Assembly (NCBI GenBank): GCA_964580765.1
Contig: CAZOKW010000003.1
Coordinates: 1-53,396, forward strand
Source: an uncultured Candidatus Saccharibacteria bacterium
Lineage (GTDB): Bacteria > Patescibacteriota > Minisyncoccia > 2-02-FULL-40-12 > IGHO2-12-FULL-4
Direction: 5' to 3'
DNA length: 53,396 bases
Part shown: one piece after another, positions 14,538 through 31,397 of the stretch
Layout: every line of letters starts with the position of its first letter
Numbering within the stretch: position 1 is the stretch's first letter
Made by a program: the position numbers and the translations under genes
The notes under the pieces: generated by a model
Databases searched by the model: none
Seen by the model: only the letters and a program-made list of their open reading frames with translations
What the model was told of the DNA's origin: nothing

Positions 14538-15512
14538 ATGTCACCTCGTGTTTTTATAATCATTCTCCAGTACAACCATTCCCAAGACACTATTAAGTGC
14601 CTTGATTCGGTTGGGAAATTGACCTACCCCAACTTTCAAACAGTTGTCGTGGACAATGCTTCTCAAAGTTCTGAAAAAGATAATATCAAGAACTACATAA
14701 AAAGTCAAGGCAACATTGTTTTGCTCGAAAATGAAAAAAATTTGGGATACGCCGGAGGAAATAATACCGGAATAAAATACGCTTTAGCCCATGGCGCGGA
14801 TTATGTTTTCATTTTAAATAACGACACGACTGTTCCGCCGGACTTACTTGAGAAATTGGTAAACGAAGGGGAAAGTGACTCTAAAATTGGAATAGTGGGA
14901 CCGGCCATCAAAGAAGGGGATGGGCGAATCGCTTACTACGGAAAAATCTCCTGGCTCAAAGCAGAACTGAAACATGTCTATGGAAAATCAGCCATACACC
15001 TACTCGAAAATTCCCGAGCGACAAGTCGAGGGTCGAGAGTGGGTGGTATGGCTGATTTTCCCGATCGAGTACGAGTATTAGGGCCGAAAGAATATGTCAT
15101 CGGGGCGGGAATGCTTATCAAAAAAGAGGTACTGGAAAAGATAGATGGTTTTGATGAGGTTTACTTTCTATATTTTGAAGATGCCGACCTCTGTCTGCGC
15201 GCCCAATTAGCCGGTTATAAGCTCAAAATTGCCCCAGAAACAATGATTTATCACCAAGGAGCCGCCAGCACCTCTACTCTTGGCAAACCGCTACTTTTAC
15301 GGTACCATATGAGGAACGCTCTGATTTTTAACTCGCTCAACGCGCCTTGGCCAGTTAAGTTTAGTTTAATCTTCTGGTCCAGCTACATTTTACTGAAAAA
15401 CTTTTTGAAAGTTTTTCTTTTGCCATCCAAAGTAACGGCCGGAGAAGCCATCATTGACGGCGTGCTGGATTTTTATAAAAACAACTACGGAAAAATAAAT
15501 ACTCCCAATTAA
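14538..15512 (+). CDS. GT2-family glycosyltransferase with an in-frame family-2 element insertion
   Basis: VVDNASQ, GYAGGNNTG and EDADLCLRAQLAGYKL motifs. The frame is maintained across the 14985-15058 insert, which encodes KSAIHLLENSRATSRGSRVGGMADF. Confidence 0.75.
   Translation: MSPRVFIIILQYNHSQDTIKCLDSVGKLTYPNFQTVVVDNASQSSEKDNIKNYIKSQGNIVLLENEKNLGYAGGNNTGIKYALAHGADYVFILNNDTTVPPDLLEKLVNEGESDSKIGIVGPAIKEGDGRIAYYGKISWLKAELKHVYGKSAIHLLENSRATSRGSRVGGMADFPDRVRVLGPKEYVIGAGMLIKKEVLEKIDGFDEVYFLYFEDADLCLRAQLAGYKLKIAPETMIYHQGAASTSTLGKPLLLRYHMRNALIFNSLNAPWPVKFSLIFWSSYILLKNFLKVFLLPSKVTAGEAIIDGVLDFYKNNYGKINTPN
14985..15058. mobile_element. family-2 RPE-like palindromic element, copy 1, in-frame in the GT2 gene
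   Basis: aaatcagccatacacc...ctcgaaaattcccgagcgacaagtcgagggtcgagagtgggtgg...tatggctgattt with a terminal 16-bp imperfect inverted repeat. Confidence 0.7.
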
Positions 15513-15520
15513 TTAAATTG

Positions 15521-15691
15521 CTAGCTTTCGTTCAAATATGACCGATTGGCTGCAAATTACCGAAGCGGAGTGAAAATTTGGCCGGTAGATTAAAATTCGG
15601 TCCGACTCTTGGAGGGGTACTGAATTTTAGTCGGCAAATTGAGCAAAGCGAGGATAATTTGTCCAAGAGGACATCTTGAAAAGAGAGCTGG
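15521..15691 (+). ncRNA. candidate structured element SE, copy 1, upstream of the GT4 gene
   Basis: Near-identical to 34399-34589 over about 160 nt (ttcaaatatgNNcgattgg...ggaggggtactgaattttagtcggcaaattga...gcgaggataatttgtccaagagg.catcttgaaaagaga). It ends 17 nt before the ATG at 15709. Confidence 0.4.
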
Positions 15692-15708
15692 CAATTTAAT
15701 TAAAAAAT

Positions 15709-16875
15709 ATGTTAAGAATTGGTATAGAGTGCCATGCTCTAGAGGCAAATCGTTGGGGAGTGGGGCACCACTTAGCAAAACTGCTTGAAGAAATTTCTAT
15801 AAAATCTGAACTCGCCAACGAGTTCAGATTTTATCTTTACTTTAAAGGTCGTATTCCTGACGATTCTTACCTTAATAACCCCATCTTTGTAAAAAGAATT
15901 TTAAAACTACCCCTCATTAGTCCATCTTTTAACATTTTTTTTCATTTTCTTTTGCCCCTGGTCTACTTCAGAGACCATCTGCAAGCGGTCTTTTTTGCCG
16001 GTTTTATGTTGCCGGCATTTTTTCTGGGAAAATCATTGGTTCTTCTGACTAGCGACGTCTACTACGAATACACTCAAGGCCAATTGCCATTTCGCTACAA
16101 ATTGAGCTACGCCCTTTTCGCTAATTGGGCCGCTTGGCGCGCCACCAAAATTACCTCTCTATCAAACACGGACAAAGAGGAAATAGTAAAGATGTTTAAA
16201 ATTGCTCCTGAAAAAATCTCAGTCAATTATTTAGGGGTTGACCAAAAGCAGGTGGTTACCTCCCTTTTGCAGTTCGTCGGCGACGAGTCCGACGCAAAAA
16301 AGGGAGGTAACCACCTGCCTTTAAATTATCTTTTGTATGTTGGTCAAGCTTTTCCCCGAAGGAGAGCCAAGGAAACTATTCAATCCTTTGCTATTTTAGC
16401 TCCTAAGTATCCTGATTTAAAATTAATTCTGGTCGGCCAAGATAAATACAATCCGCCCGTTCTGCAAAATTTAGTTAAAGAAACAAACCAAAAACTCGGC
16501 GGGGAAAGAATAATTTATCATGGTTACATAGAAAACGACGATGAACTGCAAAAACTGATGGCCGGAGCAAAATTATTTATTTATCTATCGTCTTCCGAGG
16601 CCTTTGGTATTCCACCCCTGGAAGCACTAGCCGCCGGCGTTCCTCCGATAGTTAAAGACAACGACCTGAATCATGAACTTTATGAAGGCCATGCTTTTTA
16701 TGTGAAAGATGAAAAAGACCCGGTACAAATTGCCCTTGCTCTGGAAAAAGCTCTGACCGATATCGTCCGCCGTCAAGAAATTATTCAAAATTCAGAAAAA
16801 GTAATTTCAAAGTTCAACTGGAAAAATCACGCCGAAAAATTCCTTGAGACCATGAGAGAAATAGTAAAAAATTAA
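15709..16875 (+). CDS. GT4/GT1-family glycosyltransferase
   Basis: C-terminal EAFGIPPLEALAAGVPPIV retaining-GT motif. Confidence 0.7.
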   Translation: MLRIGIECHALEANRWGVGHHLAKLLEEISIKSELANEFRFYLYFKGRIPDDSYLNNPIFVKRILKLPLISPSFNIFFHFLLPLVYFRDHLQAVFFAGFMLPAFFLGKSLVLLTSDVYYEYTQGQLPFRYKLSYALFANWAAWRATKITSLSNTDKEEIVKMFKIAPEKISVNYLGVDQKQVVTSLLQFVGDESDAKKGGNHLPLNYLLYVGQAFPRRRAKETIQSFAILAPKYPDLKLILVGQDKYNPPVLQNLVKETNQKLGGERIIYHGYIENDDELQKLMAGAKLFIYLSSSEAFGIPPLEALAAGVPPIVKDNDLNHELYEGHAFYVKDEKDPVQIALALEKALTDIVRRQEIIQNSEKVISKFNWKNHAEKFLETMREIVKN

Positions 16876-18749
16876 TGCGAGAGGCTCCGGTGGACATACT
16901 TTTGTTCGACGGCGCTACAGGGATTCCGCAACGGGCCACTGCAGACATTGTGGCTACCGTTGCGGAACCTTCCATGCGACACAAAAGTGTCCCCACTCCG
17001 CCTCTGGTAAATATGTTTAAACACTTTGATACTCTTAAAAAACCAGTTAATGTCATCTTCCTAGTCCAAATTGTGGTCGTCTTTTTGGTGGCCTTCGGTG
17101 TCTGGCCAAGAACACTGATAATTCCTTTGACGGCCTTAATCGCCATTTTTATTTTACGAGCCGATTTGGAAACATCCGCTTCTTTTTTTATCCGCTCCAT
17201 ACCACTTTTCGTGGCCATTCCTTTTACCTCTTATTTTGATTCTTTCAATATCTGGCGAATCGCCGGGGGATTGATTTTTTTGAAATGGTTTTATCAATCG
17301 TACAAAGAAAGGATAAGAATAGCGGGCAAATCAGCCATACACCTACTCGAAAATTCCCGAGGAGATTCTATGGGCGGGCTAAAGCACCGCCCACCAGAAA
17401 CTTCTCCTGACAGCGACAGTCGAGGGTCGAGAGTGGGTGGTATGGCTGATTTGCTAGTCATAAAAATTAAAAAATATCCTTTAGCGTCTTTGTTAACGAC
17501 TTTTCTTTTACTTTCCACCCTATCCCTTCTAGCCGCCGAAGATATTTTTACTGGAATCAAAAGAATAATTTATTTAATCAATTTGAGTTTAGTTCCTCTA
17601 GTCGTTTACGACTTGATTAAAAAAAAACCCGCCCTCATCAAAAAGTTCTTAGATAGCATTTTGATTTCTGGAGTAATCGTGGCCGGAGTCGGCATCACCC
17701 AGTTAGTCAGCGCTTACTTAATGCCTTTGGGCGCTTTTCTGGATTTTTGGGGAGGTACGGTTCAGCTTGGCTTTTATGGCTCACAGTGGTCCAGTATCGC
17801 TTTAGAAGGGAACACTTGGTTTGCCTACTTCGGCGACCAACTATCTTTGCGAATTTTTTCAACTTTTACGGACTCTCACTCTTTTCCGGTTTACCTTTTA
17901 ATGACAATTCCAGCTCTCTTGGCTTTAGCTAAACTCACTTGGAAACGGGGTTTCCAAGTGAGTGGAATCGTTCTCCTTGTCTTGTATCTTCTGATTATCC
18001 TAAGCGGCACCCGAGGAATATGGTTAGCCGTTTTAGGACCTTTACTGGCTTGGCCGGTTTTAGTTAATTTTCTAAAAAGGGATGGGGGGAGTTTAGAAAA
18101 AAGTTTGTTAAAAAAACTCGGATTGCTCCTTTTGCCATTTTTTCTTCTTTTCGCCGCCGCTTTTCCTATTATGGGCTCGGACCAATTCTGGGTTGAAAAA
18201 GAAAATAATCAAATTCTGGCCAAACGGATTCGTTCCGTTCTCGATTTGAACGAGACATCAAATAGTGGACGGGTAGAAATCTGGAAAAAAACGGTCAAAT
18301 CAATTATTCACCGTCCGCTCCTGGGGGTGGGGATTGGTAACTTTCCAACTGTTCTTTCTCAGCATACTGACTTGGCCAAAGCCGGCTCTTCTGCGCATAA
18401 TCTCTATCTCCATATTGCCGCCGAAATCGGCCTAGTCGGGCTTTTAGCCGCTTTAGGTATTTTGTTCATAATTTTAAAAAGAAGTTGGGATGTTTTCCGA
18501 AGAGCCAATCAGCCACACCCCCACTCGAAAATTCCCGAGCGAGGAGTCGGGGGTCGAGAGTGGGTCGGTGTGGCTGATTGGCTCACTATTAAAACCTACG
18601 CTGCCGCTTTTGTCCTTTACAGTTTGTGGGTTTTGTTTTACTCTTTAACGGATGCGATAATGTTTGACGAGCGCGTTTTTCTCGTTTTTGCCATTAATTC
18701 AGCCGTTATTTTAGGTCTATATAAAACAAAATCCGCCTTAGCGGATTAA
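16875..18749 (+). CDS. O-antigen ligase (Wzy_C)-like polytopic membrane protein, with two in-frame family-2 element insertions
   Basis: Many TM helices. HNLYLHIAAEIGLVGLL Wzy_C-like motif. The start is uncertain because the first 40 codons overlap a family-1 remnant. Confidence 0.6.
   Translation: MREAPVDILLFDGATGIPQRATADIVATVAEPSMRHKSVPTPPLVNMFKHFDTLKKPVNVIFLVQIVVVFLVAFGVWPRTLIIPLTALIAIFILRADLETSASFFIRSIPLFVAIPFTSYFDSFNIWRIAGGLIFLKWFYQSYKERIRIAGKSAIHLLENSRGDSMGGLKHRPPETSPDSDSRGSRVGGMADLLVIKIKKYPLASLLTTFLLLSTLSLLAAEDIFTGIKRIIYLINLSLVPLVVYDLIKKKPALIKKFLDSILISGVIVAGVGITQLVSAYLMPLGAFLDFWGGTVQLGFYGSQWSSIALEGNTWFAYFGDQLSLRIFSTFTDSHSFPVYLLMTIPALLALAKLTWKRGFQVSGIVLLVLYLLIILSGTRGIWLAVLGPLLAWPVLVNFLKRDGGSLEKSLLKKLGLLLLPFFLLFAAAFPIMGSDQFWVEKENNQILAKRIRSVLDLNETSNSGRVEIWKKTVKSIIHRPLLGVGIGNFPTVLSQHTDLAKAGSSAHNLYLHIAAEIGLVGLLAALGILFIILKRSWDVFRRANQPHPHSKIPERGVGGREWVGVADWLTIKTYAAAFVLYSLWVLFYSLTDAIMFDERVFLVFAINSAVILGLYKTKSALAD
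16878..16918. repeat. truncated family-1 hairpin element (half copy, minus orientation)
   Basis: gaggctccggtggacatacttttgttcgacggcgct matches the left half of the reverse-oriented copy at 36301-36380. Confidence 0.4.
17328..17452. mobile_element. family-2 RPE-like element, copy 2, with a 50-nt internal insertion
   Basis: Same termini aaatcagccatacacc / ggtatggctgattt. The extra internal hairpin is gggcgggctaaagcaccgccc. It is in-frame in the ligase gene. Confidence 0.65.
18505..18581. mobile_element. family-2 RPE-like element, copy 3
   Basis: ccaatcagccacacc / ggtgtggctgattgg is a perfect 15-bp terminal stem with paired compensatory changes (atac to acac, gtat to gtgt). It is read in a different frame from copy 2 within the same ligase gene. 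Confidence 0.65.
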
Positions 18750-18764
18750 GCAAAACATATCAAA

Positions 18765-19022
18765 CTAGCAAGAACGAACAACATTTCTAAAATAACCGTA
18801 TTGACTAAAAGACGATTGCACTTTTGAAATCTTATTTTTCTTTACTAAATTGTCAAGCGCTAATTGTATTTCTTGATCATTTGCAAAGATCAATTTATCT
18901 CTCAATAACGCACCTATGAAATCCAAGGTGGGGTCGCCGCTAGTAGCCAATAGACCGAATATTTCTTCTTCCAGTTCCATCTTTCCAATATCCTTTTTTC
19001 CAACTATAACTTTCCAAGCCAT
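18765..19022 (-). CDS. hypothetical small protein (85 aa)
   Basis: Start assigned at the MAWKV ATG, which has AAGGAG 9 nt upstream. The ORF-track start at 19103 lacks an RBS. Confidence 0.35.
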   Translation of the reverse strand: MAWKVIVGKKDIGKMELEEEIFGLLATSGDPTLDFIGALLRDKLIFANDQEIQLALDNLVKKNKISKVQSSFSQYGYFRNVVRSC

Positions 19023-19090
19023 TAGCCATTTCTCCTTTTGACACAATATCTGTAAAGAACTTTCCCTAATAAAATCATTTAAAACCAAAA

Positions 19091-20143
19091 ATGTCAACTC
19101 CACTGGTTACAATTAATTTAGTCGTTCTCAACGGTAAAAAATATGTCCGCCATTGTTTGAAGGCGGTGCAAGAGCAAACTTATCAGAATCTGGAAGTAAA
19201 TGTTTTTGATAATGGTTCCACCGATGGCACCAAAGAGATAATCCAAAATTGGAAATTGGAAATTGGAAATTGGAAATTGATTAATTTTATAGAAAGTAAA
19301 ATTAATCTCGGCACTTGGCCAGGGCAGGAAAAAGCGATGGAATCCTCACGAGGAAAATATATCGTGGCCCTTTCGGTAGATGTCTTAATGGAACCCACCG
19401 CGATTGAGAAAGCAGTAGTGGTTTTGGAAAAAGACGAAAGCATTGGCGCTCTGGAAGCCAAAATTTTACAATACACAATTGAGGCTAAGCCTCAATTTGA
19501 AGAAGGGGAGATTGTCAAAACAAATCTCATTGACACAATCGGTTTTCAAATTTTCCGCTCCAGAAGGATAACTAATTTGGGCCATGGAGAAGAAGATAGA
19601 GGACAATACAACCAAGAAAAAGAAATTTTTGCTGTAGAAGGAGCAGCGCCCGTTTTGCGAAAATCCGCTCTGGAAGAAATGCGGGTCTTGGGGGAAATAG
19701 CCGACCGGGAAATGTTTTGGTATGGAGATGACTTGGACTTGGCCTGGCGGATGAGATTGTTTGGCTGGAAACAAGTTTACAGCCCGGAAGTGGTGATGTA
19801 TCATGACCGTTCTACCACTAAAGGGGTAAGCCGAGGATGGAAAGATTATCTCTTCAGAGTGGGAGATAGAAAGAAAATTCCTACTTTAAAAAAGCGCCTG
19901 GACTGGCGGAATAAACGGCTGGCCAGAATAAAAAATGACCATTGGCAAAACGCGCTGAAAGACCTTTGGCCTATCGCTTGGCGAGAGCTCCGCGAATTGG
20001 GATATATTGCTCTTTTTGAACCGGCGGTTTTGCTGGAAATCCCCAAACTAATTCGCCTCCTTCCGCGCACTCTTAAAAAAAGGAAGGTGATAATGGCCCG
20101 AGCCAAAGTCGGCCCTAAAGAAATGAGTAAATGGTTTTTATGA
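19091..20143 (+). CDS. GT2-family glycosyltransferase containing a heptanucleotide tandem repeat
   Basis: VFDNGSTDGT and YGDDLDLAWR motifs. (ggaaatt)n at 19233-19268 lies inside the coding region. Confidence 0.7.
   Translation: MSTPLVTINLVVLNGKKYVRHCLKAVQEQTYQNLEVNVFDNGSTDGTKEIIQNWKLEIGNWKLINFIESKINLGTWPGQEKAMESSRGKYIVALSVDVLMEPTAIEKAVVVLEKDESIGALEAKILQYTIEAKPQFEEGEIVKTNLIDTIGFQIFRSRRITNLGHGEEDRGQYNQEKEIFAVEGAAPVLRKSALEEMRVLGEIADREMFWYGDDLDLAWRMRLFGWKQVYSPEVVMYHDRSTTKGVSRGWKDYLFRVGDRKKIPTLKKRLDWRNKRLARIKNDHWQNALKDLWPIAWRELRELGYIALFEPAVLLEIPKLIRLLPRTLKKRKVIMARAKVGPKEMSKWFL
19233..19268 (+). repeat. heptanucleotide simple-sequence repeat, 4 perfect GGAAATT units (about 5 AAATTGG-like units)
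   Basis: aaaattggaaattggaaattggaaattggaaattga. The unit length is not a multiple of 3, so a one-unit change would shift the GT2 frame. Confidence 0.75.
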
Positions 20144-21138
20144 ACAGAAAAAAGAAAATTATATTAATAGCCGGTATGATGATTTTTCTTTACACTATTT
20201 CTACTCTCGGAAAAAGCTCCCGTGTCATCACGGCCGAAAATCCACCCTGGTGGCAAAAAGTCGGCTTATTTTTAAACTTCGGCCTACCCATCTCTTCTTC
20301 TCGGGAGCAAAAAGAAATCCTGGACAAAAACTTCCCCTTACCAACGGAAGAAGAAAATCGCTGGGATGTTTTGATCCTGGGCATTCGGGGATCTGAAGAT
20401 CCGGATGGCGGACTGTTAAGCGACAGTATCTTGCTTTTCAGTTTAAACAAAGAAACGGGAAAATCGGGTTTAACTTCCATCCCGCGAGATATTTACGCGG
20501 AAATGCCCGGATTAGCTAAAGGAAAAGTAAATGAAATTTACGAAAAGGGGATAGCCCGCCGAAAAGCACTTGATTTTTCTAAAGAAGCCTTTTCCCGTTT
20601 AACCGCAATCTACATAGACAATGTGATTATTTTTGATTTCAAGGCCTTTAGGGAAATTGTTGATGCTTTAGAAGGAATAGATCTCAATCTTAAAAAACCA
20701 TTTGAAGAAAAAAACCAATGGGGCTATGAATTTTCTTTGCCAGTCGGTCCAAACCATCTCAACGGCCAAGAAGCCCTTTACTTTGTCCGCTCCCGCTACA
20801 GCACCAGTGATTTTGACCGGTCTTTGCGCCAACAACAAGTTATTTTGGCCATAAAAAATAAAGCGTTCAGCGCCGGAATTTTAAGCAATCCGCTTAAACT
20901 CGGACCTCTTTTAAAAAGCGTCACTAAAAATATCATGACTGACCTGAATATTTTTGACACCGGCCATCTGATTAAATTAGCCAACTCTTTCAACCCCAAA
21001 GAAAATGAGCCGGCTCTCGGCCATCTTTCCACTAATAATATTCTTGACCAGACCTTTCAAGACGATATTTATATTCTCCGGCCGAAAAATAACGACTGGC
21101 AGTTATTCCGAAAGTATTTTAAGGATATATTAAATTAG
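20131..21138 (+). CDS. LytR-CpsA-Psr (LCP) family cell-envelope glycopolymer ligase
   Basis: N-terminal TM helix. DSILLFSLNKETGKSGLTSIPRDIY and NEIYEKG are LCP hallmarks. Confidence 0.7.
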   Translation: MVFMNRKKKIILIAGMMIFLYTISTLGKSSRVITAENPPWWQKVGLFLNFGLPISSSREQKEILDKNFPLPTEEENRWDVLILGIRGSEDPDGGLLSDSILLFSLNKETGKSGLTSIPRDIYAEMPGLAKGKVNEIYEKGIARRKALDFSKEAFSRLTAIYIDNVIIFDFKAFREIVDALEGIDLNLKKPFEEKNQWGYEFSLPVGPNHLNGQEALYFVRSRYSTSDFDRSLRQQQVILAIKNKAFSAGILSNPLKLGPLLKSVTKNIMTDLNIFDTGHLIKLANSFNPKENEPALGHLSTNNILDQTFQDDIYILRPKNNDWQLFRKYFKDILN

Positions 21139-21143
21139 CTATC

Positions 21144-21213
21144 AAGAGGCGGAGGGGAACACTTTTTTTGAGCGCCGTCGAATAAAAAAGTATGTTCACC
21201 AGAGCCTCTGGCG
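21144..21213. repeat. family-1 hairpin element
   Basis: aagaggcggaggggaacactttttttgagcgccgtcgaataaaaaagtatgttcaccagagcctctgg. It is the reverse complement of the copy at 36301-36380. Confidence 0.65.
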
Positions 21214-21218
21214 AGTAT

Positions 21219-22049
21219 ATGACTTTATCAATTATCATCGTTCACTATAAAAATCTTGAGCTTTTAAAATTGTGCCTCAAATCCATCCGAGAGACACTGC
21301 CACTGGAAAATTTAACCTATGAAACATTGGTGATTGATTCGTATGCCCAACCGGAAACCGGAGCGGTCTTATTCGAAAACTTTCCCGAAACAAAATATTT
21401 TCCTTTCAAAAAAAATATCGGCTATGCCGTTGGGGTCAACAGTGGGTTTAAAAATTCCTCCGGCCAATATTGTCTGATCTTAAACCCTGATATTGTTGTC
21501 ACTAAGGGGGCTATCTCTAAAATGCTTGAGCATCTGCAAAATCATCCGGAAGTGGGCCTGCTCGGGCCGCGCCTCCTTGGTTTCAACGGAGAAATCCAAA
21601 ATTCCCGCTTTCGGTTTTATCGCCCCTGGACCATCGCCTGCCGCCGGACATTTTTAGGAAAAAATATTTTAGGCCAAAAAGAACTAAGCCGTTTCAACTT
21701 GGCCAACCTCAATCCTTTAGATCAAATTTATCCCGATTGGATTATGGGTTCAGCCATACTGACTAGACGAGAAACCGTAGAGAAAGTAGGGCCAATGGAT
21801 GAAAGATTTTTTTTGTATTTTGAGGATGTTGACTGGGCCAGAAGATTTTGGGAAAATGGCTTTAAGGTGCTGTATTTTCCTGAAGCAGTCATGCTTCATT
21901 ATCACCAACGCAGTTCCCGAGCCGGATTTGATTTTTTAGATTTTTTCCTGCGCCGGGAAACTCGCTGGCACATTGCCAGTGGCCTAAAATATTTTCTAAA
22001 GCACGGCTGGCGCTATCGGTCAGGAGAAGAACTATATCATGCCAAATAA
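21219..22049 (+). CDS. GT2-family glycosyltransferase
   Basis: Start placed at ATG 21219 (MTLSIIIVHYKN...). The ORF-track start at 21192 lies inside the family-1 hairpin. DXD-type YFEDVDWARR motif. Confidence 0.7.
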   Translation: MTLSIIIVHYKNLELLKLCLKSIRETLPLENLTYETLVIDSYAQPETGAVLFENFPETKYFPFKKNIGYAVGVNSGFKNSSGQYCLILNPDIVVTKGAISKMLEHLQNHPEVGLLGPRLLGFNGEIQNSRFRFYRPWTIACRRTFLGKNILGQKELSRFNLANLNPLDQIYPDWIMGSAILTRRETVEKVGPMDERFFLYFEDVDWARRFWENGFKVLYFPEAVMLHYHQRSSRAGFDFLDFFLRRETRWHIASGLKYFLKHGWRYRSGEELYHAK

Positions 22050-23265: not shown

Positions 23266-23353
23266 CAAGGGTAAGCGTTTTATTTGCCTTAAATACTAAA
23301 TCATGTTATGGTCTTGTTAAATTTGGATTCTTTAAAAACTTGGGGAAAGATTT

Positions 23354-23599: not shown

Positions 23600-23602
23600 A
23601 AC

Positions 23603-23628
23603 TACCTGGATTTATCCGGGTTTTTTGT
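23603..23628 (+). terminator. rho-independent terminator
   Basis: Stem cctgga/tccggg, loop ttta, followed by tttttt. Confidence 0.45.
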
Positions 23629-23669
23629 TTTGACAGTATCGATTAGTTTTGTTATCATAATTAAACTTT

Positions 23670-24122
23670 ATGGCTAAGGTAATCTTTCTCCAAAACATCA
23701 GGAATGTGGCTCAAGTAGGGGATATTAAAAATGTGGCGGACGGATATGCCCGTAATTTTTTGTTACCAAGAAAGTTGGCGGTTTTGGCTACGAACAACTC
23801 TCTTAAAATGGCTGAACAGCTCAAACAAAAAAGAGCGCTGGAAACACAAAAAGAAGAAGGGGTGATTATAGAGTTGATTGAGAAACTAACTAACTACACT
23901 TTAAATATTGAAAGAGCAGCTAACGAGGACGGAACCCTCTACGACGGATTGGATTCAGCCGAAATATCCGGCTATTTAAAAAAAGAACATTTTCTGATAG
24001 AGCCCGAGCAAATCAATCTGGAAGCGTCTCTAAAAAAAGTGGGGGTTTACGAAATAGAAATTGAGTTCTCTAAAGATAAAAAAGTAACTCTGAAAATAGA
24101 AATTAAAAAACTGGCCGACTAG
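23670..24122 (+). CDS. rplI: 50S ribosomal protein L9
   Basis: MAKVIFLQNIRNVAQVGDIKNVADGYARNFLLPRKLA. Confidence 0.85.
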   Translation: MAKVIFLQNIRNVAQVGDIKNVADGYARNFLLPRKLAVLATNNSLKMAEQLKQKRALETQKEEGVIIELIEKLTNYTLNIERAANEDGTLYDGLDSAEISGYLKKEHFLIEPEQINLEASLKKVGVYEIEIEFSKDKKVTLKIEIKKLAD

Positions 24123-24135
24123 CCAGTTTTCTAAA

Positions 24136-24197
24136 GCCGACTCATAATACTCGTCGGCATCTCATCTTTTATTTTGCCCCTTCGGGGCTTTTTTTGT
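24136..24197 (+). terminator. tandem two-hairpin terminator module after rplI
   Basis: Hairpin gccgactcataatactcgtcggc, then atctcatcttttatttt, then hairpin gccccttcggggc followed by tttttttg. The same module is found inverted after ndh. Confidence 0.6.
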
Positions 24198-24238
24198 CGT
24201 AGCGCAGACAGCGGACTGTCTGCATCTCAACTTTCAAG

Positions 24239-24535
24239 TTACCCTTTCAGGGTTTTCTCGTTGTAGATAACACTGACAATTTTAACCAAACGGCGGTGGC
24301 CGTTAAATTTGAGCATCCTTTTGGTGGTAAATTTAATCTGGCCGTTTCGCACAGCATAAATAGTATCGTCCTTGCCAAGCCGCGCGCCTGTTCCTGGAAC
24401 AACTTTAGTACCCCGCTGGCGAATAATTATATTGCCGACTCTGGCCTTTTGTCCCCCGGACAATTTTACCCCCAAGTATTTGGGTCGGGAATCTTTACCG
24501 TATTTTCCGGCTCCTATTGCTTTTGTATGTGCCAT
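24239..24535 (-). CDS. rpmA: 50S ribosomal protein L27
   Basis: MAHTKAIGAGKYGKDSRPKYLGVK...GNIIIRQRGTK. Confidence 0.9.
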   Translation of the reverse strand: MAHTKAIGAGKYGKDSRPKYLGVKLSGGQKARVGNIIIRQRGTKVVPGTGARLGKDDTIYAVRNGQIKFTTKRMLKFNGHRRLVKIVSVIYNEKTLKG

Positions 24536-24549
24536 AGATAGGTTATAAC

Positions 24550-24993
24550 TTGAGTAAACTGGAAAGTTCTATTAGAATGTTGTTTATTAAAGACATGTTA
24601 TCAAAATTATTGGAATTTATCAAGTCCAAGCAGGCGGAGGTGGTTTTGGCCATAGGGGTTGTTTTAATAGCCATAATTGCCTTTGAAAGCGGGAAAATAT
24701 CGGCCCTGCGCCGATTCAACGATCCGTTGGAAATAAAATACGCTCCGGCCTCGCCGGCCGGCGGACCGGCCGCCATAACTAATCCGGATTCCGGCACAAA
24801 AACAAATCCCCAAACAAGCCAAAGCCCTCAAAAACTAGATCTGCGTGTCGTCGCCTCAAAAAATTCCACCTTATATCATTTTCTCTGGTGCTCCGGAGCG
24901 CAAAAAATAAAAGAAGAAAACAAAATAACTTTTGCCACCGAGCAGGAGGCGCAAAGCAGGGGATATGAGCTTGCTTCTAATTGCCGAAAATAG
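24550..24993 (+). CDS. hypothetical membrane-anchored protein with an Ada-Zn-like C-terminal motif
   Basis: TM helix VVLAIGVVLIAIIAF, a P/T/S-rich linker, then LYHFLWCSGAQKIKEENKITFATEQEAQSRGYELASNC. Confidence 0.4.
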   Translation: MSKLESSIRMLFIKDMLSKLLEFIKSKQAEVVLAIGVVLIAIIAFESGKISALRRFNDPLEIKYAPASPAGGPAAITNPDSGTKTNPQTSQSPQKLDLRVVASKNSTLYHFLWCSGAQKIKEENKITFATEQEAQSRGYELASNCRK

Positions 24994-25032
24994 TATCTTA
25001 AGTTCCAGAACATTAAATAAAGGAGAGAGCAA

Positions 25033-25518
25033 ATGAACGGAAGAGCCGTAATTAAAACAAACGATCCTAACCTGACAAAGTTAAGCGAGGAACTGATAAA
25101 CAGCGGGGTAATTCAAGTAGTGGGGCAAGTGGCACCTGATACCTGTTGGCTCGATAGCACTCGCTGTCCTTATGGCTACCCCGAAGGAACTTTTGAAAAA
25201 CGACCGGTATCCTGTTTTATGGGAGATGGCGGATGTGGAAAATTGAATGACCATAAATCGGACATAGTAAAATTCTCCGGCAACTTAATTGAAGCGGAGT
25301 CCGAGCCCAAACTTCGAGAAGTTTTTGATAGGTTTGGCATAACTTTATCTAGTGAACTTGTCATGCTGGCGGATGGAGGGGAATATGAAATATCAGAATT
25401 GGAAAAAACGATCTTGGTTGCCGCGGCGAATATTATTGAAAGAGAGGAAAAGAACGAAGACAGAGCGCCGATTGACAATAAAATTATCAGAAGAAAAGAT
25501 TTTGAAGCAGAGTTATAA
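25033..25518 (+). CDS. hypothetical Cys-rich protein
   Basis: 161-aa ORF with CWLDSTRCPYG and CFMGDGGCGK cysteine clusters. No recognisable family. Confidence 0.4.
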   Translation: MNGRAVIKTNDPNLTKLSEELINSGVIQVVGQVAPDTCWLDSTRCPYGYPEGTFEKRPVSCFMGDGGCGKLNDHKSDIVKFSGNLIEAESEPKLREVFDRFGITLSSELVMLADGGEYEISELEKTILVAAANIIEREEKNEDRAPIDNKIIRRKDFEAEL

Positions 25519-25546
25519 TTTGCCAAGCCCTGAAAGGGCTTTTTAT

Positions 25547-26344
25547 TTATCTTATCCGGCTCAACCAGAATTGGTTTTCCCACTCCCAAAGAGTTTTGCA
25601 AGCCAAAAAAGCGGAAAAATCATGATTCTGACCGGGCAATTCTTTCAGCTCCGCTTCTCCGACCATTTCACTCCATTGGTGTTGGCAATTTTTTCCTTTG
25701 CCCTCCGAAGCTTTACTGTGTCCGTCCGAAGCGCTTCGCGAAGGAGGAGCGTAGGAGGGGACTCTTATCTTAGGTGTACCGCCCTTCAAACGCAAAGTAG
25801 CCGGACAATTTAAGCATTTATGGTGCTGGTCCAAACGCAATATCCAGCGGGTCATAGAAGAGGGAAGGCCATTTTCTATCAAGGCCTCCACATAAGCAGC
25901 GGTCTGGATGCCATAATCCCTATAAATGGAATAGGAAGTTTTAATATCTAAAACTCCAAGTTGGCCGTTCACTTCCGCCAAGACATCCAAAGTGCCGGAG
26001 TAGCGGTGCTTTTTACTGACTAATCTTTCCTCGATCTGTTTGGCCGAGACCTGGTTGTGATTTAGAAAATTCATAAAAGCGTCAATAACCGGGCGGATGT
26101 TTTCCGGAATGACCGGCTGCCGGCCGCTTAAAATCGCCTCAACCGTTTCGTGAATTAAAGTTCCTTCTTCCGCCGATTTAGCCTTCATCGCTTCCCCGGC
26201 TTCAAAACTTTCCTGCTCCGCATAAAATTTATAAAGCCCCGGCTTAGCTTTCATGGAAACAATTTGAGTAACCCGCGGATACCAAAAACCATCAATGGTA
26301 TAACCGGAAGCCATCTTAAAATCTTCTAGAGTCCGATAAAACAT
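25547..26344 (-). CDS. PD-(D/E)XK nuclease, Cas4/RecB-exonuclease-like, with an embedded family-3 element
   Basis: GTLDVL...LGVLDIKTS...YGIQTAAY (D, EXK and QxxxY motifs). C-terminal Cys cluster HHKCLNCP...C, interrupted by the element at 25700-25760 that encodes APPSRSASDGHSKASEG. Confidence 0.55.
   Translation of the reverse strand: MFYRTLEDFKMASGYTIDGFWYPRVTQIVSMKAKPGLYKFYAEQESFEAGEAMKAKSAEEGTLIHETVEAILSGRQPVIPENIRPVIDAFMNFLNHNQVSAKQIEERLVSKKHRYSGTLDVLAEVNGQLGVLDIKTSYSIYRDYGIQTAAYVEALIENGLPSSMTRWILRLDQHHKCLNCPATLRLKGGTPKIRVPSYAPPSRSASDGHSKASEGKGKNCQHQWSEMVGEAELKELPGQNHDFSAFLACKTLWEWENQFWLSRIR
25700..25760. mobile_element. family-3 (CCGAAGC) palindromic element inside the Cas4-like gene
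   Basis: gccctccgaagctttactgtgtccgtccgaagcgcttcgcgaaggaggagcgtaggagggg. The central cgaagcgcttcg is a perfect palindrome. It matches 32380-32439. Confidence 0.65.
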
Positions 26345-26406
26345 AATTGAAAAAATTTTAACATAGTGTATAGTTTTTAAAAAGCACCTTAAAAATATGG
26401 GGGATA

Positions 26407-28077
26407 GTGATGATAAGTATTAGCCAGTTATTTTTGGAGAAATTGAGCTGGGGTGGGATGGCTTACCAATATCAACCGGCCATGGTCTTTTTAAAAAAAG
26501 ACGGAGTGGAAATTGAGTACACCTGGTTTGACTACAAAGAGAAAACTCTACAGGCAATGGAGGGCCTAAAAGGACGCGGCCTAAAAGCGGGGGAGTTTGT
26601 AGCCATAATTGCGTTGAATCTTCCCGAGTCATTTTTTGCCATGCTCGGCGCCATTCTAATGAGAGCAGTTCCCGTACCGATCAATGTGATGCTCCTGAAA
26701 GAAAAGGAACAAAAGGAATTAAAAAAGATTTTGGATGATTGTAAACCAGGATTAGTTTTAGGAAACGGATGTTTAAAAAAACTGCTGCCTGAATATTGCA
26801 TTCCCATTGAACAAATAATCTCGGAAGGAGTAGAAAAAATTGCCGGAAAACCTTATGGAAAAAATGTTAATCCGGCTCCCCGCCAAATAGCCATCCCCAT
26901 TGACGAACGAGATCCTCAAGAGATGCTCATCATGCCCTACACTTCGGGCACTTCCGGCCAGCCCAAAGGAGTAATGCTAAGCACTGAAGCCGTCCTTGAT
27001 CGAGTGGCTGCTATTAATGATGCATTAGAAACGATAAAAAACGGCAGGGTTTTGTCTTATCTGCCCCTAGGCCATATTTCCGAACTGGTAGCCACATTTT
27101 TCGGACAAATCTACAAAGGTTACACCATTTATTTCACCGAATACATTGAGGAAATGGTCCGGGATCGAGAAAAGTTTAGGAAAGCCTTTCCGGAAATTTT
27201 ACGACAGGTCCAGCCAACTACTTTTCTGGCCGTACCAAAGGTCTGGATCAATTTTCAAAAAGAAATCCAGAAAAAGATGAACGGGATTGTTCCGCGCGTC
27301 CTAAAACGACTCAAAACGGGTAGAAAACTCCTCATTAAACTGGTGAAGAAAGAACTGGGTTTCATCAACACTCGCATTTTCATCAGCGCCGGTGCGCCGA
27401 TCGATCAAAGCATCATAGAATTTTTCAAAAATCTGGAAATCAATATAGACGACATTTATGGCCAGACTGAAGCTAGTGGGCCGGTCTTAATTAACGGCCA
27501 ACCAATTGGCAATATCCGGGTAATGATCAACTACCACCAAGGCAAAGAAGAAATTTTAGTGCAAGGCAAAAGTTTAATGCTTGGCTACTATAACAATCTG
27601 GAAGCCACTCTCCAAGCCATCGAAAATCTTAATGGCAGTGGAGAACTGGTTTACCACACCGGAGACGCCGGAATCTGGGGAAAAGGACTGGCCCAATTAA
27701 TTTACGCTGGCCGACTGGATGATGGGTTTAAATTAGCCAACGGGGAATTTGTTTCCGCCCCCAAACTTTACGAACTGGAAAATAGACTTAAAAAAATAGA
27801 AGATGTAGAAGAAGCCATCATCTGTGGAGAGGGGAAACCCTTTTTGGTAGCTTTAATTTTCACTAATGGGGATTTTCTACAAAGTTGCACCTTATTTCGC
27901 ACCAAAATCATTAAAAATATCAAAGAACATCTTATTGAGAAAGGGGAGGGTATTTATAAAGTAAAATTTTTTGAACTTCTGGATAAAGATGGGCTGGAGC
28001 TTACCCCAACCATGAAAGTAAGAAGAAAACTAGTCATCAAAAAATTCCAAGAAGTTATTGACCGATTGACCACCTGA
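26407..28077 (+). CDS. AMP-dependent synthetase/ligase (acyl-CoA synthetase-like)
   Basis: YTSGTSGQPKGVMLS AMP-binding motif, then YGQTE, then a C-terminal lysine region. Confidence 0.75.
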   Translation: MMISISQLFLEKLSWGGMAYQYQPAMVFLKKDGVEIEYTWFDYKEKTLQAMEGLKGRGLKAGEFVAIIALNLPESFFAMLGAILMRAVPVPINVMLLKEKEQKELKKILDDCKPGLVLGNGCLKKLLPEYCIPIEQIISEGVEKIAGKPYGKNVNPAPRQIAIPIDERDPQEMLIMPYTSGTSGQPKGVMLSTEAVLDRVAAINDALETIKNGRVLSYLPLGHISELVATFFGQIYKGYTIYFTEYIEEMVRDREKFRKAFPEILRQVQPTTFLAVPKVWINFQKEIQKKMNGIVPRVLKRLKTGRKLLIKLVKKELGFINTRIFISAGAPIDQSIIEFFKNLEINIDDIYGQTEASGPVLINGQPIGNIRVMINYHQGKEEILVQGKSLMLGYYNNLEATLQAIENLNGSGELVYHTGDAGIWGKGLAQLIYAGRLDDGFKLANGEFVSAPKLYELENRLKKIEDVEEAIICGEGKPFLVALIFTNGDFLQSCTLFRTKIIKNIKEHLIEKGEGIYKVKFFELLDKDGLELTPTMKVRRKLVIKKFQEVIDRLTT

Positions 28078-28091
28078 CTTCAAGAAGCTTA

Positions 28092-28112
28092 AAGCCGAAA
28101 TTCGGCTTTTTT
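28092..28112 (+). terminator. rho-independent terminator
   Basis: aagccgaaattcggctttttt. Confidence 0.65.
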
Positions 28113-28187
28113 AGTTATAGGGGATAAAGGAGTTTAAAATATGGACTAGGACGCACAATATACATTTTACGACCTACTATCCTTTTA

Positions 28188-28577
28188 CTAAAACCGGCTG
28201 GTCAATATATCTAATAGAACTTTAAAGATGCCCAGGGTAGTATTTAGGGTGGTAATGATCAGCCGGATGAAAAGGGCCAGCACGGCTTTGGCGCTAGAAC
28301 CGATATCATTGGAAGAGAATCCCTCCGTATTGGTCAAATCGCTAAAAGACAGCCCCTTAGGGTCGCTCTTGATGAACTTGGTAACATCAATAGGACTAAA
28401 CTGAAGAGGATTTTGGTTGAAGATGGACTTTGTAGCTTTATCCAAAGGACCAGCTGGATCGTCAAGAGAGTAGGCCCCGGCCGGACCGGCCGGAGAAGAA
28501 AAAAAAGACAAAACAAAAAATAAAATATAAATTATAAAAAATATCCTTCTTCTCAAATATAACAAAATTATACTCAT
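28188..28577 (-). CDS. hypothetical secreted or membrane small protein (possible pilin-like)
   Basis: N-terminal signal-like hydrophobic stretch ending AGPAGA. C-terminal hydrophobic helix AVLALFIRLIITTLNTTLGIFKVLL. Confidence 0.4.
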   Translation of the reverse strand: MSIILLYLRRRIFFIIYILFFVLSFFSSPAGPAGAYSLDDPAGPLDKATKSIFNQNPLQFSPIDVTKFIKSDPKGLSFSDLTNTEGFSSNDIGSSAKAVLALFIRLIITTLNTTLGIFKVLLDILTSRF

Positions 28578-28635
28578 CCCTGTCTTAACTTGACAACATT
28601 AATAAACTTATGTCAAGTGAGTTATCCACAACTGG

Positions 28636-28697
28636 GAAGCCCCAACGGGGCGAAATTAAAAGGTGAGATGCCGACGAGTCTTACGAGCCGGCGCCGC
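28636..28697 (-). terminator. two-hairpin terminator module after ndh, the same family as 24136-24197
   Basis: Minus strand reads gccggctcgtaagactcgtcggc, atctcacctttt, aatttc, gccccgttggggc. Confidence 0.45.
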
Positions 28698-28736
28698 AGG
28701 CCAATTCATGAGACCTTTCTCCCCCGTTCCATGCCT

Positions 28737-29975
28737 CTAATCATTTTTACCAAACACTGAAATCTCCTCACTTAACAAAGAAACCGCTTTAGAGACCGGC
28801 AAAATCGACAAGAAATACCTAAAGTCAACCAACTCCCGCGCCACCCATCCCCAAAATCCGGAAATGGTCAGCCGTTTAGTCAAATGAGCGACGGCAAACT
28901 TCCCTCCCACTGGAGCGATCCAAACATTGTAAAACGGCTGATACGATTTAAGCTGTTTATTTTTAATCAAACGCTCAATATTTTCTGCCACGACCTTTCC
29001 TTCATCCACCGCCACATAAGCTAAGCCGGGAATGGGCTTTTTGGTGGCTTCATCAACAAAAACTGTATTATCCCCCAGGCCAAAAACATCAGCCCACCCC
29101 TCGGCTTGCAAAAAATTATTGACGAGCATTTTACCTTTCTCATCCAACCTTAGTCCAAAAATATTTTTCAAAAACGAAGAAGCGCGGATACCCGCCGCCC
29201 AGATGATAAAGTCCGCTTCATGTTTTTGTCCGCCATCAATTTGCACAAAATTAGAACCGACTTCGGTAATCTTACTGTTCTCCAAAATTTCTATTTTTAG
29301 ATTGGTCAATCTTTTTCGAATTATTCCTCTTTCTTTTTCCGAAATCATCGGCAAGATCTGTGGAGCGGCTTCAACTATTTTAATATTGTAGCCGACAGTC
29401 TTGGTTTTCTGTAAATTTCCGGCCAAAGAGGCCAGTTCCGCCGCCAATTCAATACCGTTAAATCCCCCGCCGGCCACTATAAACCCGACCGGTGAAGAAC
29501 GCCGTCCTTCCTTGGCCACTTGAAAAGCTTCGTTTACTTTTTGATTCAAAAAGAGCGCTTCGTCTAAGTTCTTAAACTTGTAGGCATATTCCGAAACGCC
29601 CGGAATACCGAAAGTGTCCGTCTCCGCTCCTAGACCCAAAACCAAATAGTCATAAGCGAAAATTCTCCCCCCTCCGGAAGCAGCTTCTTTTTTTTCTAAG
29701 TCAATCCCGGTAATGGCCGCCTGAACAAAATTGACTTTAGTCCCCTCAAAAATATCGGCATAGGGGATATTAACGGTTCGTCTCAATTCCACATGATAAC
29801 GGTCAGCCCACTTCCCCACCGCCGAACCGACTTCATAGAGAGCGGGCAAGAAAAGGTGGGAATTATTCTTATCCACCAAAACAATCTCCGCTTCCTTAGT
29901 GGAAAGTTTCTTGTCTAAATCCAAAGCCGTTCTGATTCCCCCAAAACCACCCCCTATTATAAGCACCTTTTTCAT
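28737..29975 (-). CDS. ndh: type II NADH dehydrogenase (NDH-2), FAD-dependent oxidoreductase
   Basis: N-terminal KKVLIIGGGFGG dinucleotide fold, plus a second GxGxxG at IVAGGGFNGIELAAEL. Confidence 0.8.
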   Translation of the reverse strand: MKKVLIIGGGFGGIRTALDLDKKLSTKEAEIVLVDKNNSHLFLPALYEVGSAVGKWADRYHVELRRTVNIPYADIFEGTKVNFVQAAITGIDLEKKEAASGGGRIFAYDYLVLGLGAETDTFGIPGVSEYAYKFKNLDEALFLNQKVNEAFQVAKEGRRSSPVGFIVAGGGFNGIELAAELASLAGNLQKTKTVGYNIKIVEAAPQILPMISEKERGIIRKRLTNLKIEILENSKITEVGSNFVQIDGGQKHEADFIIWAAGIRASSFLKNIFGLRLDEKGKMLVNNFLQAEGWADVFGLGDNTVFVDEATKKPIPGLAYVAVDEGKVVAENIERLIKNKQLKSYQPFYNVWIAPVGGKFAVAHLTKRLTISGFWGWVARELVDFRYFLSILPVSKAVSLLSEEISVFGKND

Positions 29976-30065
29976 AATATTTATTTTTATTCCCCTCCCC
30001 CGCCGATAATTAAAATTTGTTTCACAAATTTAGTTCATCAAGAACATTATAACCTTATAACTCTT

Positions 30066-31397
30066 TTATAGGTAATCTAATGGATTTATTGAACCTTCAA
30101 AATAGTTAAAATATAACTGGCCGTTTTTTTCGTTGATATAAGTAAAGAAATCTTTATAAACACTTAGATGTAAATGGGAGCCGGTGGAATTTCCGGTAGA
30201 CCCCTCATAACCGATAACATCACTGGCCGTAACCGCCAAACCATTAACCAAACCGGAAGGAGCGCGCAGATGAGCGTAAACACTGACCAATCCGCCATTG
30301 TGCCGCACAGCCACCCAATGGCCGAAACCATCGTTAAACCCGCTGGCCAAAATATTTCCGGCGGCCATCGGATGAATGGCCGTACCATAACCGCCCGCCA
30401 AATCAATCCCGTTATGAGGAGCGCCACCATAAGGTTTTCGTCTGGAACGGGCATAAGCGGTATATCCGTAACCTTGGGTAATGTGATATTCATCTTCCGG
30501 CCATTGAAAAATTTTAGTTCCCCGCGGAGGAACCGCATCAGCCGTCACATGTACGATAAAAGCCCCAGACTGCAAGGCCTGATCTTCCAAATTCTTTAAT
30601 TCCGCGAAAAACTCCGCTTCTTTCTTCTCCGTTTCCGCCAGTAATTTTTGATACTCCGCCTCCTGCCCCTTGGTCCTGACCAAAAGATTGTTCTTGTTCG
30701 ATTTGGTGCCGCTTAAAGCCACCTGCTGATTCTTCTGTGAATTATTCAACTTTTCCAAATCCTGTTTTTTTATTTCCAGTTCGGTCTTATTTTCTTCCAG
30801 TTCTTGGCGTTCGTTTTTTAAAACAGTAATGGCGGCCAACAAACTCTTGTTTAAATTATCGGCCTGCTTGGCTTGATCCAAAAAATCGGAAAGGTGGTTA
30901 TTTTTCAACAAAATAGCCAGCCAGTTTTCCCGGTCGTTTTGATACATCATTTTCAGTAAACTGCCCACCGTATCTTGACGATTTTTGATCTTTTCGTGCC
31001 GGTCAAAAATTTTATCGCGCAAATCCCCGATTACCAACTGTGTAGAGGAAATCTTATTTCCGGTTATTCTGACTTCCGTTTCCAACCGGCTGATCTGATT
31101 GGTCAAAACGCTTATTTCTTTTTGTAAACTAGTCGCCTCCTTTTGCTTGCCGGAAACAACTTTTTTATATTCATCTGATTTCTTTTGCAGTTCTTCCAAC
31201 TGTTTTCTCAAGTCCAATATTTTCTGATTGACATCTTCCGCCGCCAATCCAGATCCGGAATAAAAAAAGAAAGAGAAGAAAACGACCAGGCAAATCAGCC
31301 ATACACCTACCTGAAAACTCCCGAGCGACAAGTCGAGGGTCGAAGGTAGGTTGTATTGCTGATTTGCTAAAAATTTACTTTTGAATTGCTTTTTCAA
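30066..31397 (-). CDS. M23 family metallopeptidase with coiled-coil region (EnvC-like)
   Basis: Long coiled-coil. C-terminal HNGIDLA...GSTGNSTGSHLHLSV M23 motifs. The N-terminal 35 codons are encoded by the family-2 element copy at 31292-31365. Confidence 0.7.
   Translation of the reverse strand: MKKQFKSKFLANQQYNLPSTLDLSLGSFQVGVWLICLVVFFSFFFYSGSGLAAEDVNQKILDLRKQLEELQKKSDEYKKVVSGKQKEATSLQKEISVLTNQISRLETEVRITGNKISSTQLVIGDLRDKIFDRHEKIKNRQDTVGSLLKMMYQNDRENWLAILLKNNHLSDFLDQAKQADNLNKSLLAAITVLKNERQELEENKTELEIKKQDLEKLNNSQKNQQVALSGTKSNKNNLLVRTKGQEAEYQKLLAETEKKEAEFFAELKNLEDQALQSGAFIVHVTADAVPPRGTKIFQWPEDEYHITQGYGYTAYARSRRKPYGGAPHNGIDLAGGYGTAIHPMAAGNILASGFNDGFGHWVAVRHNGGLVSVYAHLRAPSGLVNGLAVTASDVIGYEGSTGNSTGSHLHLSVYKDFFTYINEKNGQLYFNYFEGSINPLDYL
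31292..31365. mobile_element. family-2 RPE-like element, copy 4, antisense within the 5' end of the M23 peptidase gene
   Basis: aaatcagccatacacctacc...cccgagcgacaagtcgagggtcgaaggtaggttgtattgctgattt. Confidence 0.6.

Follow-up and report, generated by a model that had tools for sequence, protein, structure and literature searches.

The stretch of DNA analyzed here, referred to as the window, is positions 1 to 53,396 (53,396 nt) of contig CAZOKW010000003.1, assembly GCA_964580765.1, from an uncultured Candidatus Saccharibacteria bacterium. It carries four copies of a palindromic element, termed family 2, in three host genes. The copies belong to a dispersed family that lies in frame inside unrelated genes and that was found in both orientations at the same place in homologous genes. 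The first host gene (14538-15512, + strand) encodes a GT2 glycosyltransferase of 324 aa; the deposited protein P0001, from 'Parcubacteria group bacterium Gr01-1014_44', is 100% identical to it. The second (17013-18749, + strand) encodes a membrane protein of the O-antigen-ligase family (Wzy_C), deposited as 578 aa, the mechanically called open reading frame (ORF) starting at 16875. The third (30066-31397, - strand) encodes an M23 peptidase with a coiled-coil N-terminal part, deposited as coding sequence (CDS) TSC75034.1 of 443 aa.

The limits of the copies were set from the family alignment and an inverted-repeat scan. Copy 1 (14983-15060, + strand, 78 nt) lies in sense in the GT2 gene, scored 104 bits with the covariance model and reads as KSAIHLLENSRATSRGSRVGGMADF, ∼residues 150-174 of the protein. 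Its asymmetric, conserved core, GAAAATTCCCGAGCGACAAGTCGAGGGTCGA (15006-15036, + strand), was found unchanged at 18527-18557 in copy 3 and at 31313-31343 in copy 4; in copy 2 the core is in two pieces, 17349-17361 and 17414-17430. Copy 2 (17326-17454, + strand) is a long form of 129 nt and contributes 43 residues in sense to the first variable loop of the Wzy_C ligase. The two pieces of its core are separated by an extra hairpin segment (17362-17413, + strand) that follows the CCCGAG of the core and adds a net 51 bases. The right half of copy 2 is identical to that of copy 1. Copy 3 (18503-18583, + strand) occupies a C-terminal loop of the same ligase, with ∼81 nt inserted, 79 nt in columns 10-90 of the alignment, one extra base in the right arm and a palindrome that reaches 18502-18584; orthologues of this copy were found in L005 and L087. 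Copies 1 and 2 share one reading frame, copy 3 is entered in another, giving NQPHPHSKIPERGVGGREWVGVADW, and copy 4 (31290-31367, + strand, 78 nt) is antisense to the M23 peptidase gene. In the annotated M23 CDS copy 4 reads ANQQYNLPSTLDLSLGSFQVGVWLIC, between the charged N-terminus and a hydrophobic stretch.

The annotated start of TSC75034.1 is a TTG at 31397, which places copy 4 at ∼residues 11-36, and copy 4 lies inside the M23 gene only if this TTG is the true start. The annotated start overlaps the end of gltX, encoding glutamyl-tRNA synthetase (GluRS), by 23 nt (31375-31397); the gltX stop codon is at 31375-31377 and copy 4 begins 8 nt beyond it. Alternative M23 starts at internal TTG codons had no counterpart in the protein collection. 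With the copy-4 residues removed, MKKQFKSKFL is joined to LVVFFSFFFYSGSGLAAED and the product looks like an ordinary signal or anchor sequence.

Each copy was folded as one long hairpin, with z values of -6 to -9 against dinucleotide shuffles. A 33-nt pattern of the left half, allowing up to 3 mismatches, matched the window four times and 100 shuffled sequences not once. All four copies lie on the + strand, which is not significant (p = 0.125). A preliminary description of this DNA had placed four palindromic copies at these sites, in a GT2 gene, twice and in two frames in an O-antigen-ligase-like gene, and antisense in the 5′ end of an M23 gene; all four were located, and the ORFs and deposited proteins agree on the hosts. 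The extra hairpin it reported in copy 2 is present. The paired substitutions that it described in the arms of copy 3 (atac/gtat to acac/gtgt) are real, and the same pair covaries across the family (UA in 79 copies, CG in 4). Its stem length of 15-20 bp was too short, the actual stem being ∼26 bp with one bulge.

Further copies were gathered with a pattern requiring the exact core, in which 24 core positions were fixed, and apparent core conservation is inflated accordingly. Sixteen stretches were recovered from one-genome-per-species contigs, in four GTDB species genomes: Yanofskybacteria, Giovannonibacteria, a metagenome-assembled genome (MAG) labelled Saccharibacteria, and JAUYPS01, an unclassified MAG of the Candidate Phyla Radiation (CPR) that holds at least 15 copies. 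The same scan of groundwater-type metagenome contigs yielded 75 further stretches, and 88 distinct copies were left after removal of duplicates. The element was present in independent assemblies from NCBI, JGI, ENA and Logan; it would have multiplied in Parcubacteria-type CPR genomes. No copy was found in viral contigs with the core pattern, and a blastn search of phage and plasmid collections with the consensus gave no match. An Rfam scan of the window at the gathering threshold matched no family, and a permissive scan of copy 1 (E up to 10) returned generic hairpin (miRNA precursor) matches only. The covariance model recovered the four copies in the window, along with an unrelated palindrome at 16238-16328, and in 543 kb of fetched loci it recovered known copies and long variants only.

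The unit in the family alignment (alignment A2) is R-(3 variable paired bases)-AAATCAG-CCATAC-ACCYACYY-GAAAAYTCCCGAGCGAnnAGTCGAGGGTCGA-RRGTRGGT-(bulge)-GTATGG-CTGATTT-(3 variable)-Y, a stem of ∼26 bp around a near-invariant, asymmetric and non-palindromic core of 31 nt. Pairs changed on both sides were found for 25 of 29 tested. Paired cells amounted to 89%, compared with 32-39% when the partner column was slid by 1-3, and none of 500 shuffles matched the observed pairing measures. The outermost three pairs vary freely and keep their complementarity. Because the search pattern fixed 24 core positions, core invariance is partly a matter of ascertainment; among the seven positions that the pattern left free, five were at least 99% conserved and two were hypervariable (86 copies). 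Mismatches of the G:T and A:C types were about equally frequent (45 and 32, p = 0.17) and therefore do not point to one functional transcribed strand.

The long form with 51 extra bases was also found in the NifS-like gene of L056 and L061 and at the GT2 site of P0002, where the extra segment lies in the peptide GDSMGGLKHRPPETSPDSD. The GLKHR..ETSP motif occurs in P0010 without the family-2 core. Because the segment recurs elsewhere and the motif occurs without the core, the extra hairpin is probably either a small palindrome in its own right that lies nested within the core, or the mark of a long subfamily exchanged between copies. At L030:3264-3370, a family-2 copy has its right arm broken after GGGTCGAAGGT by ∼26 nt of unrelated sequence, beyond which the arm continues as ...AGGTAGTATC; this interruption could be a nested insertion or a rearrangement.

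Copies were classed as gene-internal where at least 40 open codons were present on each side and the frame ran through the element. By this measure 53 of the 88 copies are gene-internal, 15 are near an ORF end and 20 are in short open stretches. Every gene-internal copy (53/53) is in frame in an open ORF, 35 in sense and 18 in antisense, and no frame-broken host gene was found among the copies examined. Frames were named by strand and by phase relative to the core (S, sense; A, antisense). S0 (sense phase 0, ...KSAIHPLENSRAKSRGSRVGGMADL) is used by 30 of the 53 copies, A1 (antisense phase 1, ...KSAIRPTLDPRLFAREFSSGCMADL) by 18 and S2 (sense phase 2) by five, in which one extra base usually restores the S0 exit frame. 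S0 and A1 have the same phase relative to the arms. Among 85 copies the frame A1 was stop-free in 80, S0 in 79, A0 in 64, S2 in 55, S1 in 16 and A2 in 11. Use of S0 or A1 in 48 of the 53 copies is above the expectation from openness alone; when tallied per host site, S0/A1 accounted for ∼19-20 sites and other frames for 3-4.

Hosts outside the window belong to at least 21 unrelated families, with at least 24 host sites in all. Those identified with Pfam include RecG, TsaD, LepA, SpoU methylase, a PMT-type glycosyltransferase, class-V aminotransferase, UvrC and GT4. The NifS-like class-V aminotransferase gene of L056 has two copies, a short one just after the start codon and a long one in mid-domain, and Pfam aligned its class-V aminotransferase domain in two stretches. 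An exhaustive phmmer search of proteins with a 30-aa peptide from the window gave nothing at E up to 0.001, and one 44-aa protein was matched by an S0+A1 consensus of 50 aa made by concatenation.

Intergenic copies in L062 (∼1840-1930), L039, L010, L014 (5428) and L059 lie in tiny gaps between co-directional genes; the upstream gene often extends into the element and stops there, at a TGA in its right arm, and 5-20 nt beyond the element the following gene begins. In-silico deletion of the element from the 35 copies that are not gene-internal joined open frames in eight. Six of these were inspected and all proved to be gaps between adjacent co-directional genes, which ruled out split or spliced host genes in those cases. 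In them a polA-like, secA-like or other gene start follows the element within a few bases, and in many the preceding gene terminates within it.

Orthologous proteins with and without the insert were then compared. In the GT2 alignment an insert of ∼26 residues was present in P0001-P0005 and P0013 (43 residues in P0002). It was missing from P0006 (75% identical), P0015, P0017-P0020 and others, which have a short loop instead at 59-75% identity, and the DNA encoding P0006 held no trace of the element. Ligase insert 1 was found only in P0121 and P0122, and insert 2 in P0121, P0123, P0125 and P0126; most ligase orthologues have neither, and the more distant ones have short loops. The AlphaFold model of the GT2 protein (mean predicted local distance difference test score (pLDDT) 85.5, predicted template modelling score (pTM) 0.84) falls to a pLDDT under 50 over residues 156-177, which lie within the insert. 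This is the only long low-confidence segment and is flanked by well-folded parts of the GT-A fold, so that the insert is predicted to sit in a disordered loop.

Decayed copies were also recovered. The GT2 orthologue P0014 (L093:1440-1490) retains an in-frame remnant with an internal deletion of 54 nt that took out the core, the greater part of the left arm and the inner part of the right arm; what is left, AAAAAT|GGGCGTATTTCTGATTTT, is read as KNGRISDF. Half copies cut at the core were found in L010, L051 and L066, and at the orthologous ligase site of L082 the arms are intact around a rebuilt core. The preliminary description had proposed that host ORFs stay open and that the element behaves like the palindromic elements of Rickettsia. 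The former holds for all gene-internal copies of the family, and the latter is supported by the unrelated hosts with open ORFs, the insert-free orthologues and the remnants. Two findings had been named there as capable of overturning it. With regard to an ancestral segment shared by orthologues, the GT2 and most ligase orthologues lack the segment; with regard to split gene models, the Wzy_C ligase is a single ORF with copies 2 and 3 both within the deposited 578-aa protein, and the other hosts are likewise single ORFs whose deposited proteins run through the elements.

Clustering of host ORFs revealed homologous genes with the element at the same place in opposite orientations. Flanks of 340-600 nt were compared without gaps, anchored at the element junctions. 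Fourteen orthologous pairs of opposite orientation were obtained at nine host sites, with identical junctions and flank identities of 0.59-0.94; non-identical pairs of the same orientation were about equally many. The closest opposite pair, L021 and L040, has the element in the LepA GTPase domain between the RGITI and DTPGH motifs. Here the flanks are 94.2% identical over 364 nt and the junctions are the same, the core and the arm bulge are inverted, and the peptide NQSAIRPLENSRAKSRGSRMGDTADW becomes NQSAISPTLDPRLFAREFSSRHMADW. Orthologues of either orientation have site-specific arm variants (CGCC.../GGGCGAT) in common, and inversion of a resident copy is therefore favored over re-insertion. 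Exact inverted stretches in the inverted-repeat scan were no longer than 18 bp, and since this would be below the usual k-mers of assemblers, an assembly artefact is an unlikely source of the flips. The comparisons imply that repeated in-situ inversion recodes the inserted peptide. The dominance of S0 and A1 is explained by the same property, since that phase remains open after a flip.

Nucleotide conservation was measured for five orthologous copies at the GT2 site, three of which had been found via the core pattern. The core was 95% identical overall and 90% identical at third codon positions, and the arms were 85-91% identical; adjacent well-conserved coding sequence was 80% identical overall and 48% identical at third codon positions. 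A set collected by protein similarity (P0002-P0005, P0013) also keeps ENSR[AG].. and RGS[RK]VG. Neutral decay of a dead insert would have matched the synonymous sites of its surroundings, and the strong conservation therefore reflects one of three things: constraint at the level of the host, homogenisation by exchange between copies, or repeated re-insertion at the same site. Exchange would also randomise orientation, because the arms provide homology either way round.

These observations are probably best explained by a small non-autonomous palindromic family, similar to MITEs, the miniature inverted-repeat transposable elements, or to Rickettsia palindromic elements (RPEs), that has been filtered for compatibility with coding and whose core flips in place. 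We infer mobility, translation, the mechanism of flipping and the role of the core from sequence comparison. Copies that persist would be those compatible with coding. At 78 nt the unit equals 26 codons, a multiple of three, and four of its six frames are usually stop-free; gene-internal survivors would lie in permissive variable or disordered loops and be read through as a peptide of 26 or 43 residues. The 26-bp inverted repeat around the asymmetric 31-nt core would allow the core to flip repeatedly in place, likely by template switching at the hairpin or by recombination of one arm with the other. Each flip would swap ...PLENSRAKSRGSRVG... for ...PTLDPRLFAREFSSG... and leave the host gene unbroken. 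The near-invariant core would most likely be the recognition site of a trans-acting enzyme, and it may also stay uniform through exchange between copies.

Several observations weigh against this reading. All pairs with at least 97.5% identical flanks (n = 10) have the same orientation, and flipping is therefore shown on an evolutionary scale only, between related genomes. A conserved centre with variable termini is the reverse of ordinary transposons with terminal inverted repeats. No target-site duplication was found at the many boundaries tested, the sole signal being a self-complementary GC dinucleotide. An autonomous parent, sought as widely spaced arm pairs in the 543 kb of fetched loci, was not found, half copies being the only matches; no transposase was found, and copies of intermediate covariance-model score were absent from the same 543 kb. 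A purely selfish model predicts neither the recurrent in-situ inversion nor conservation at the nucleotide level, such as the excess of third-position identity in the core over that in the flanking coding sequence.

One rival explanation is a programmed intragenic inversion switch, a dispersed family of recoding invertons in the service of the host. In such a switch, recombinase sites in the arms, or a core-specific processing of the hairpin, would let the host toggle peptides in many proteins. It is in keeping with the nine host sites that have both orientations at identical junctions, with the openness of both dominant-phase orientations in ∼93% of copies, with the conserved arm motif AAATCAG.CATAC and core, and with the constraint suggested by synonymous-site conservation; short recoding intragenic invertons, e.g., of 57 bp, are known in Bacteroides (bioRxiv 10.1101/2023.03.11.532203). 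It is nevertheless unlikely. The ∼47 bp between the outer arms would be too little for duplex DNA, given its stiffness, to loop into a recombinase synapse, a recombinase link to the element is lacking, and the ten near-identical contig pairs are all of one orientation. The loops that hold the inserts are disordered or variable, and the peptide would probably be of no consequence in them; intergenic and decayed copies exist. We regard as rather doubtful the related idea of gene-internal invertible cassettes under nucleotide-level selection, in which a CPR-specific enzyme that recognises the conserved core and arm motif, or a hairpin-dependent process, would flip the cassette and so toggle a ∼17-residue peptide in dozens of housekeeping and envelope proteins within a population. 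Another rival is a motif acting in cis to the benefit of the host, as structured RNA or as single-stranded DNA: it might stabilise mRNA, mark a processing site, terminate transcription or form a hairpin to which protein binds, with the gene-internal copies as tolerated by-products. The very strong covariation and thermodynamic stability, the conserved apical core with two hypervariable loop positions, the high conservation of orthologous copies and the many copies placed precisely in gaps between co-directional genes, a position from which hairpins affect transcripts, would all suit such a motif. However, copies occur in both orientations inside ORFs (35 sense, 18 antisense) and flip at a given site, so that no single RNA strand is kept. 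Mismatches are not asymmetric and Rfam offered generic hairpins only, and we consider this explanation improbable.

Removal of the element as an intron-like or intervening sequence, from the transcript or from the protein, is very unlikely. The long perfect hairpin could be a substrate of the RNase III type, and CPR rRNA genes carry many insertions. But removal before translation would make it needless for all 53 gene-internal copies to be in frame and stop-free; ribozyme and intron models were unmatched, and an insert of 26 residues without intein motifs is not an intein. Least credible of all are a protein segment of ancestral or functional origin and an artefact of assembly. All insert-bearing GT2 orthologues keep ENSRA.SRGS unchanged, but different hosts read this DNA in four or more combinations of frame and orientation, the segment is absent from many orthologues and it is predicted to be disordered. 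An artefact is opposed by the recovery of the element from independent NCBI, JGI, ENA and Logan assemblies.

Other palindromes were observed in the window and in related sequences. A different palindrome of 79 nt (16244-16322) lies inside the ORF 15709-16875, which stays open; its arms, AAAAGCAGGTGGTTACCTCCCTTTT and AAAAGGGAGGTAACCACCTGCCTTT, are 96% complementary, and the covariance model, which scored it at 33.6 bits, picked it up as a long hairpin of generic kind. It appears to belong to a second family of palindromes inside genes. Further hairpins of 70-100 nt with unrelated sequences were found at 13835-13910, 4932-5004, 39789-39884, 48655-48722 and 49094-49158, the first two within the long + strand ORFs 13192-14445 and 4255-5868, respectively. 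Two mutually similar AT-rich near-palindromes (7823-7893 and 42644-42728) consist of repeated AAGTTCATAAAGT-like units and are unrelated to family 2. Another palindrome family, with peptides such as QGSTFF..QGRTF and LQGRTLD/LQGSPL and DNA of the form ...caaggtcgaaccttg..., was found in the same variable loops of the ligase (P0122, P0124, P0128) and of GT2 (P0009-P0013), and also at L030:3205-3235. Judged from these placements, a small number of permissive loops seem to be used by more than one palindrome family.

CPR (Patescibacteria) genomes are small and streamlined, and mobile DNA is believed to be scarce in them. The element is nonetheless present in essential genes, among them tsaD, lepA, uvrC, recG and a nifS-like gene. 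Alongside Rickettsia, the family would provide a second, independent instance in which selfish DNA occupies protein-coding genes of a reduced and host-dependent lineage, which suggests that genomes with almost no intergenic space favor repeats compatible with coding. Recurrent in-place inversion supplies a set of naturally occurring protein pairs whose sole difference is the flipped peptide, and links mobile palindromes to the recently described gene-internal inversions. In practice, the inserts inflate and distort CPR protein alignments, loop lengths and gene calls.

Literature on CPR, Patescibacteria and Parcubacteria was searched for palindromic elements, MITEs and in-frame insertions. No such element was found described in the literature searched, which is not proof of absence; the preliminary description had called it undescribed in small-genome lineages of this kind. 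The closest counterparts are the RPEs, which are ∼150 bp long (Ogata et al., 2000, summarised in PMC10969869). As with the CPR element, these are dispersed palindromes in many unrelated housekeeping genes, always in frame and giving a tolerated peptide, in a reduced-genome, host-dependent lineage and with no known transposase. The likeness is one of behavior as described: at 78 nt the CPR element is about half the size, it occurs in CPR/Parcubacteria and not in Rickettsia, and it has a near-invariant apical core with varying, covarying termini. To our knowledge, neither both orientations at one site nor an unusual conservation of orthologous copies has been reported for RPEs. Recurrent in-situ inversion and synonymous-site conservation go beyond an RPE-like reading.

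Bacterial MITEs (Correia, ERIC, BOX, RUP, Nezha and others; PMC10969869) share with the CPR element a small size, inverted-repeat ends, hairpin formation and many copies, and they too are found in intergenic gaps, at occasional gene-internal sites and as nested or truncated copies. In contrast, the CPR element has no target-site duplication, no parent insertion sequence with matching ends was seen in the 543 kb of loci, conservation is in the centre and not at the termini, and 60% of copies are inside ORFs. Repetitive extragenic palindromic (REP) sequences and REPINs, which are mobilised by REP-associated tyrosine transposases (RAYTs), resemble the element in their hairpin-forming inverted pairs, similar total length, lack of target duplication and, probably, handling as single-stranded hairpins. 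REPINs are extragenic and are conserved in their two arms, unlike the CPR element with most of its copies inside ORFs; no RAYT gene was found with it, although no search aimed at one was made.

Recoding intragenic invertons, including a 57-bp example, were described by Chanin et al. (bioRxiv 10.1101/2023.03.11.532203). These are likewise short gene-internal segments flanked by inverted repeats, with both orientations open and encoding different peptides. The CPR unit differs in being a dispersed repeat family in dozens of genes, with inversion seen between related genomes and no invertase implicated. In plastid non-coding DNA, hairpin-associated minute inversions are found in which short inverted repeats enclose a loop that turns over repeatedly and homoplasiously, with no dedicated enzyme involved. 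The plastid cases are unique non-coding hairpins, whereas the CPR element is a repeat family in coding sequence.

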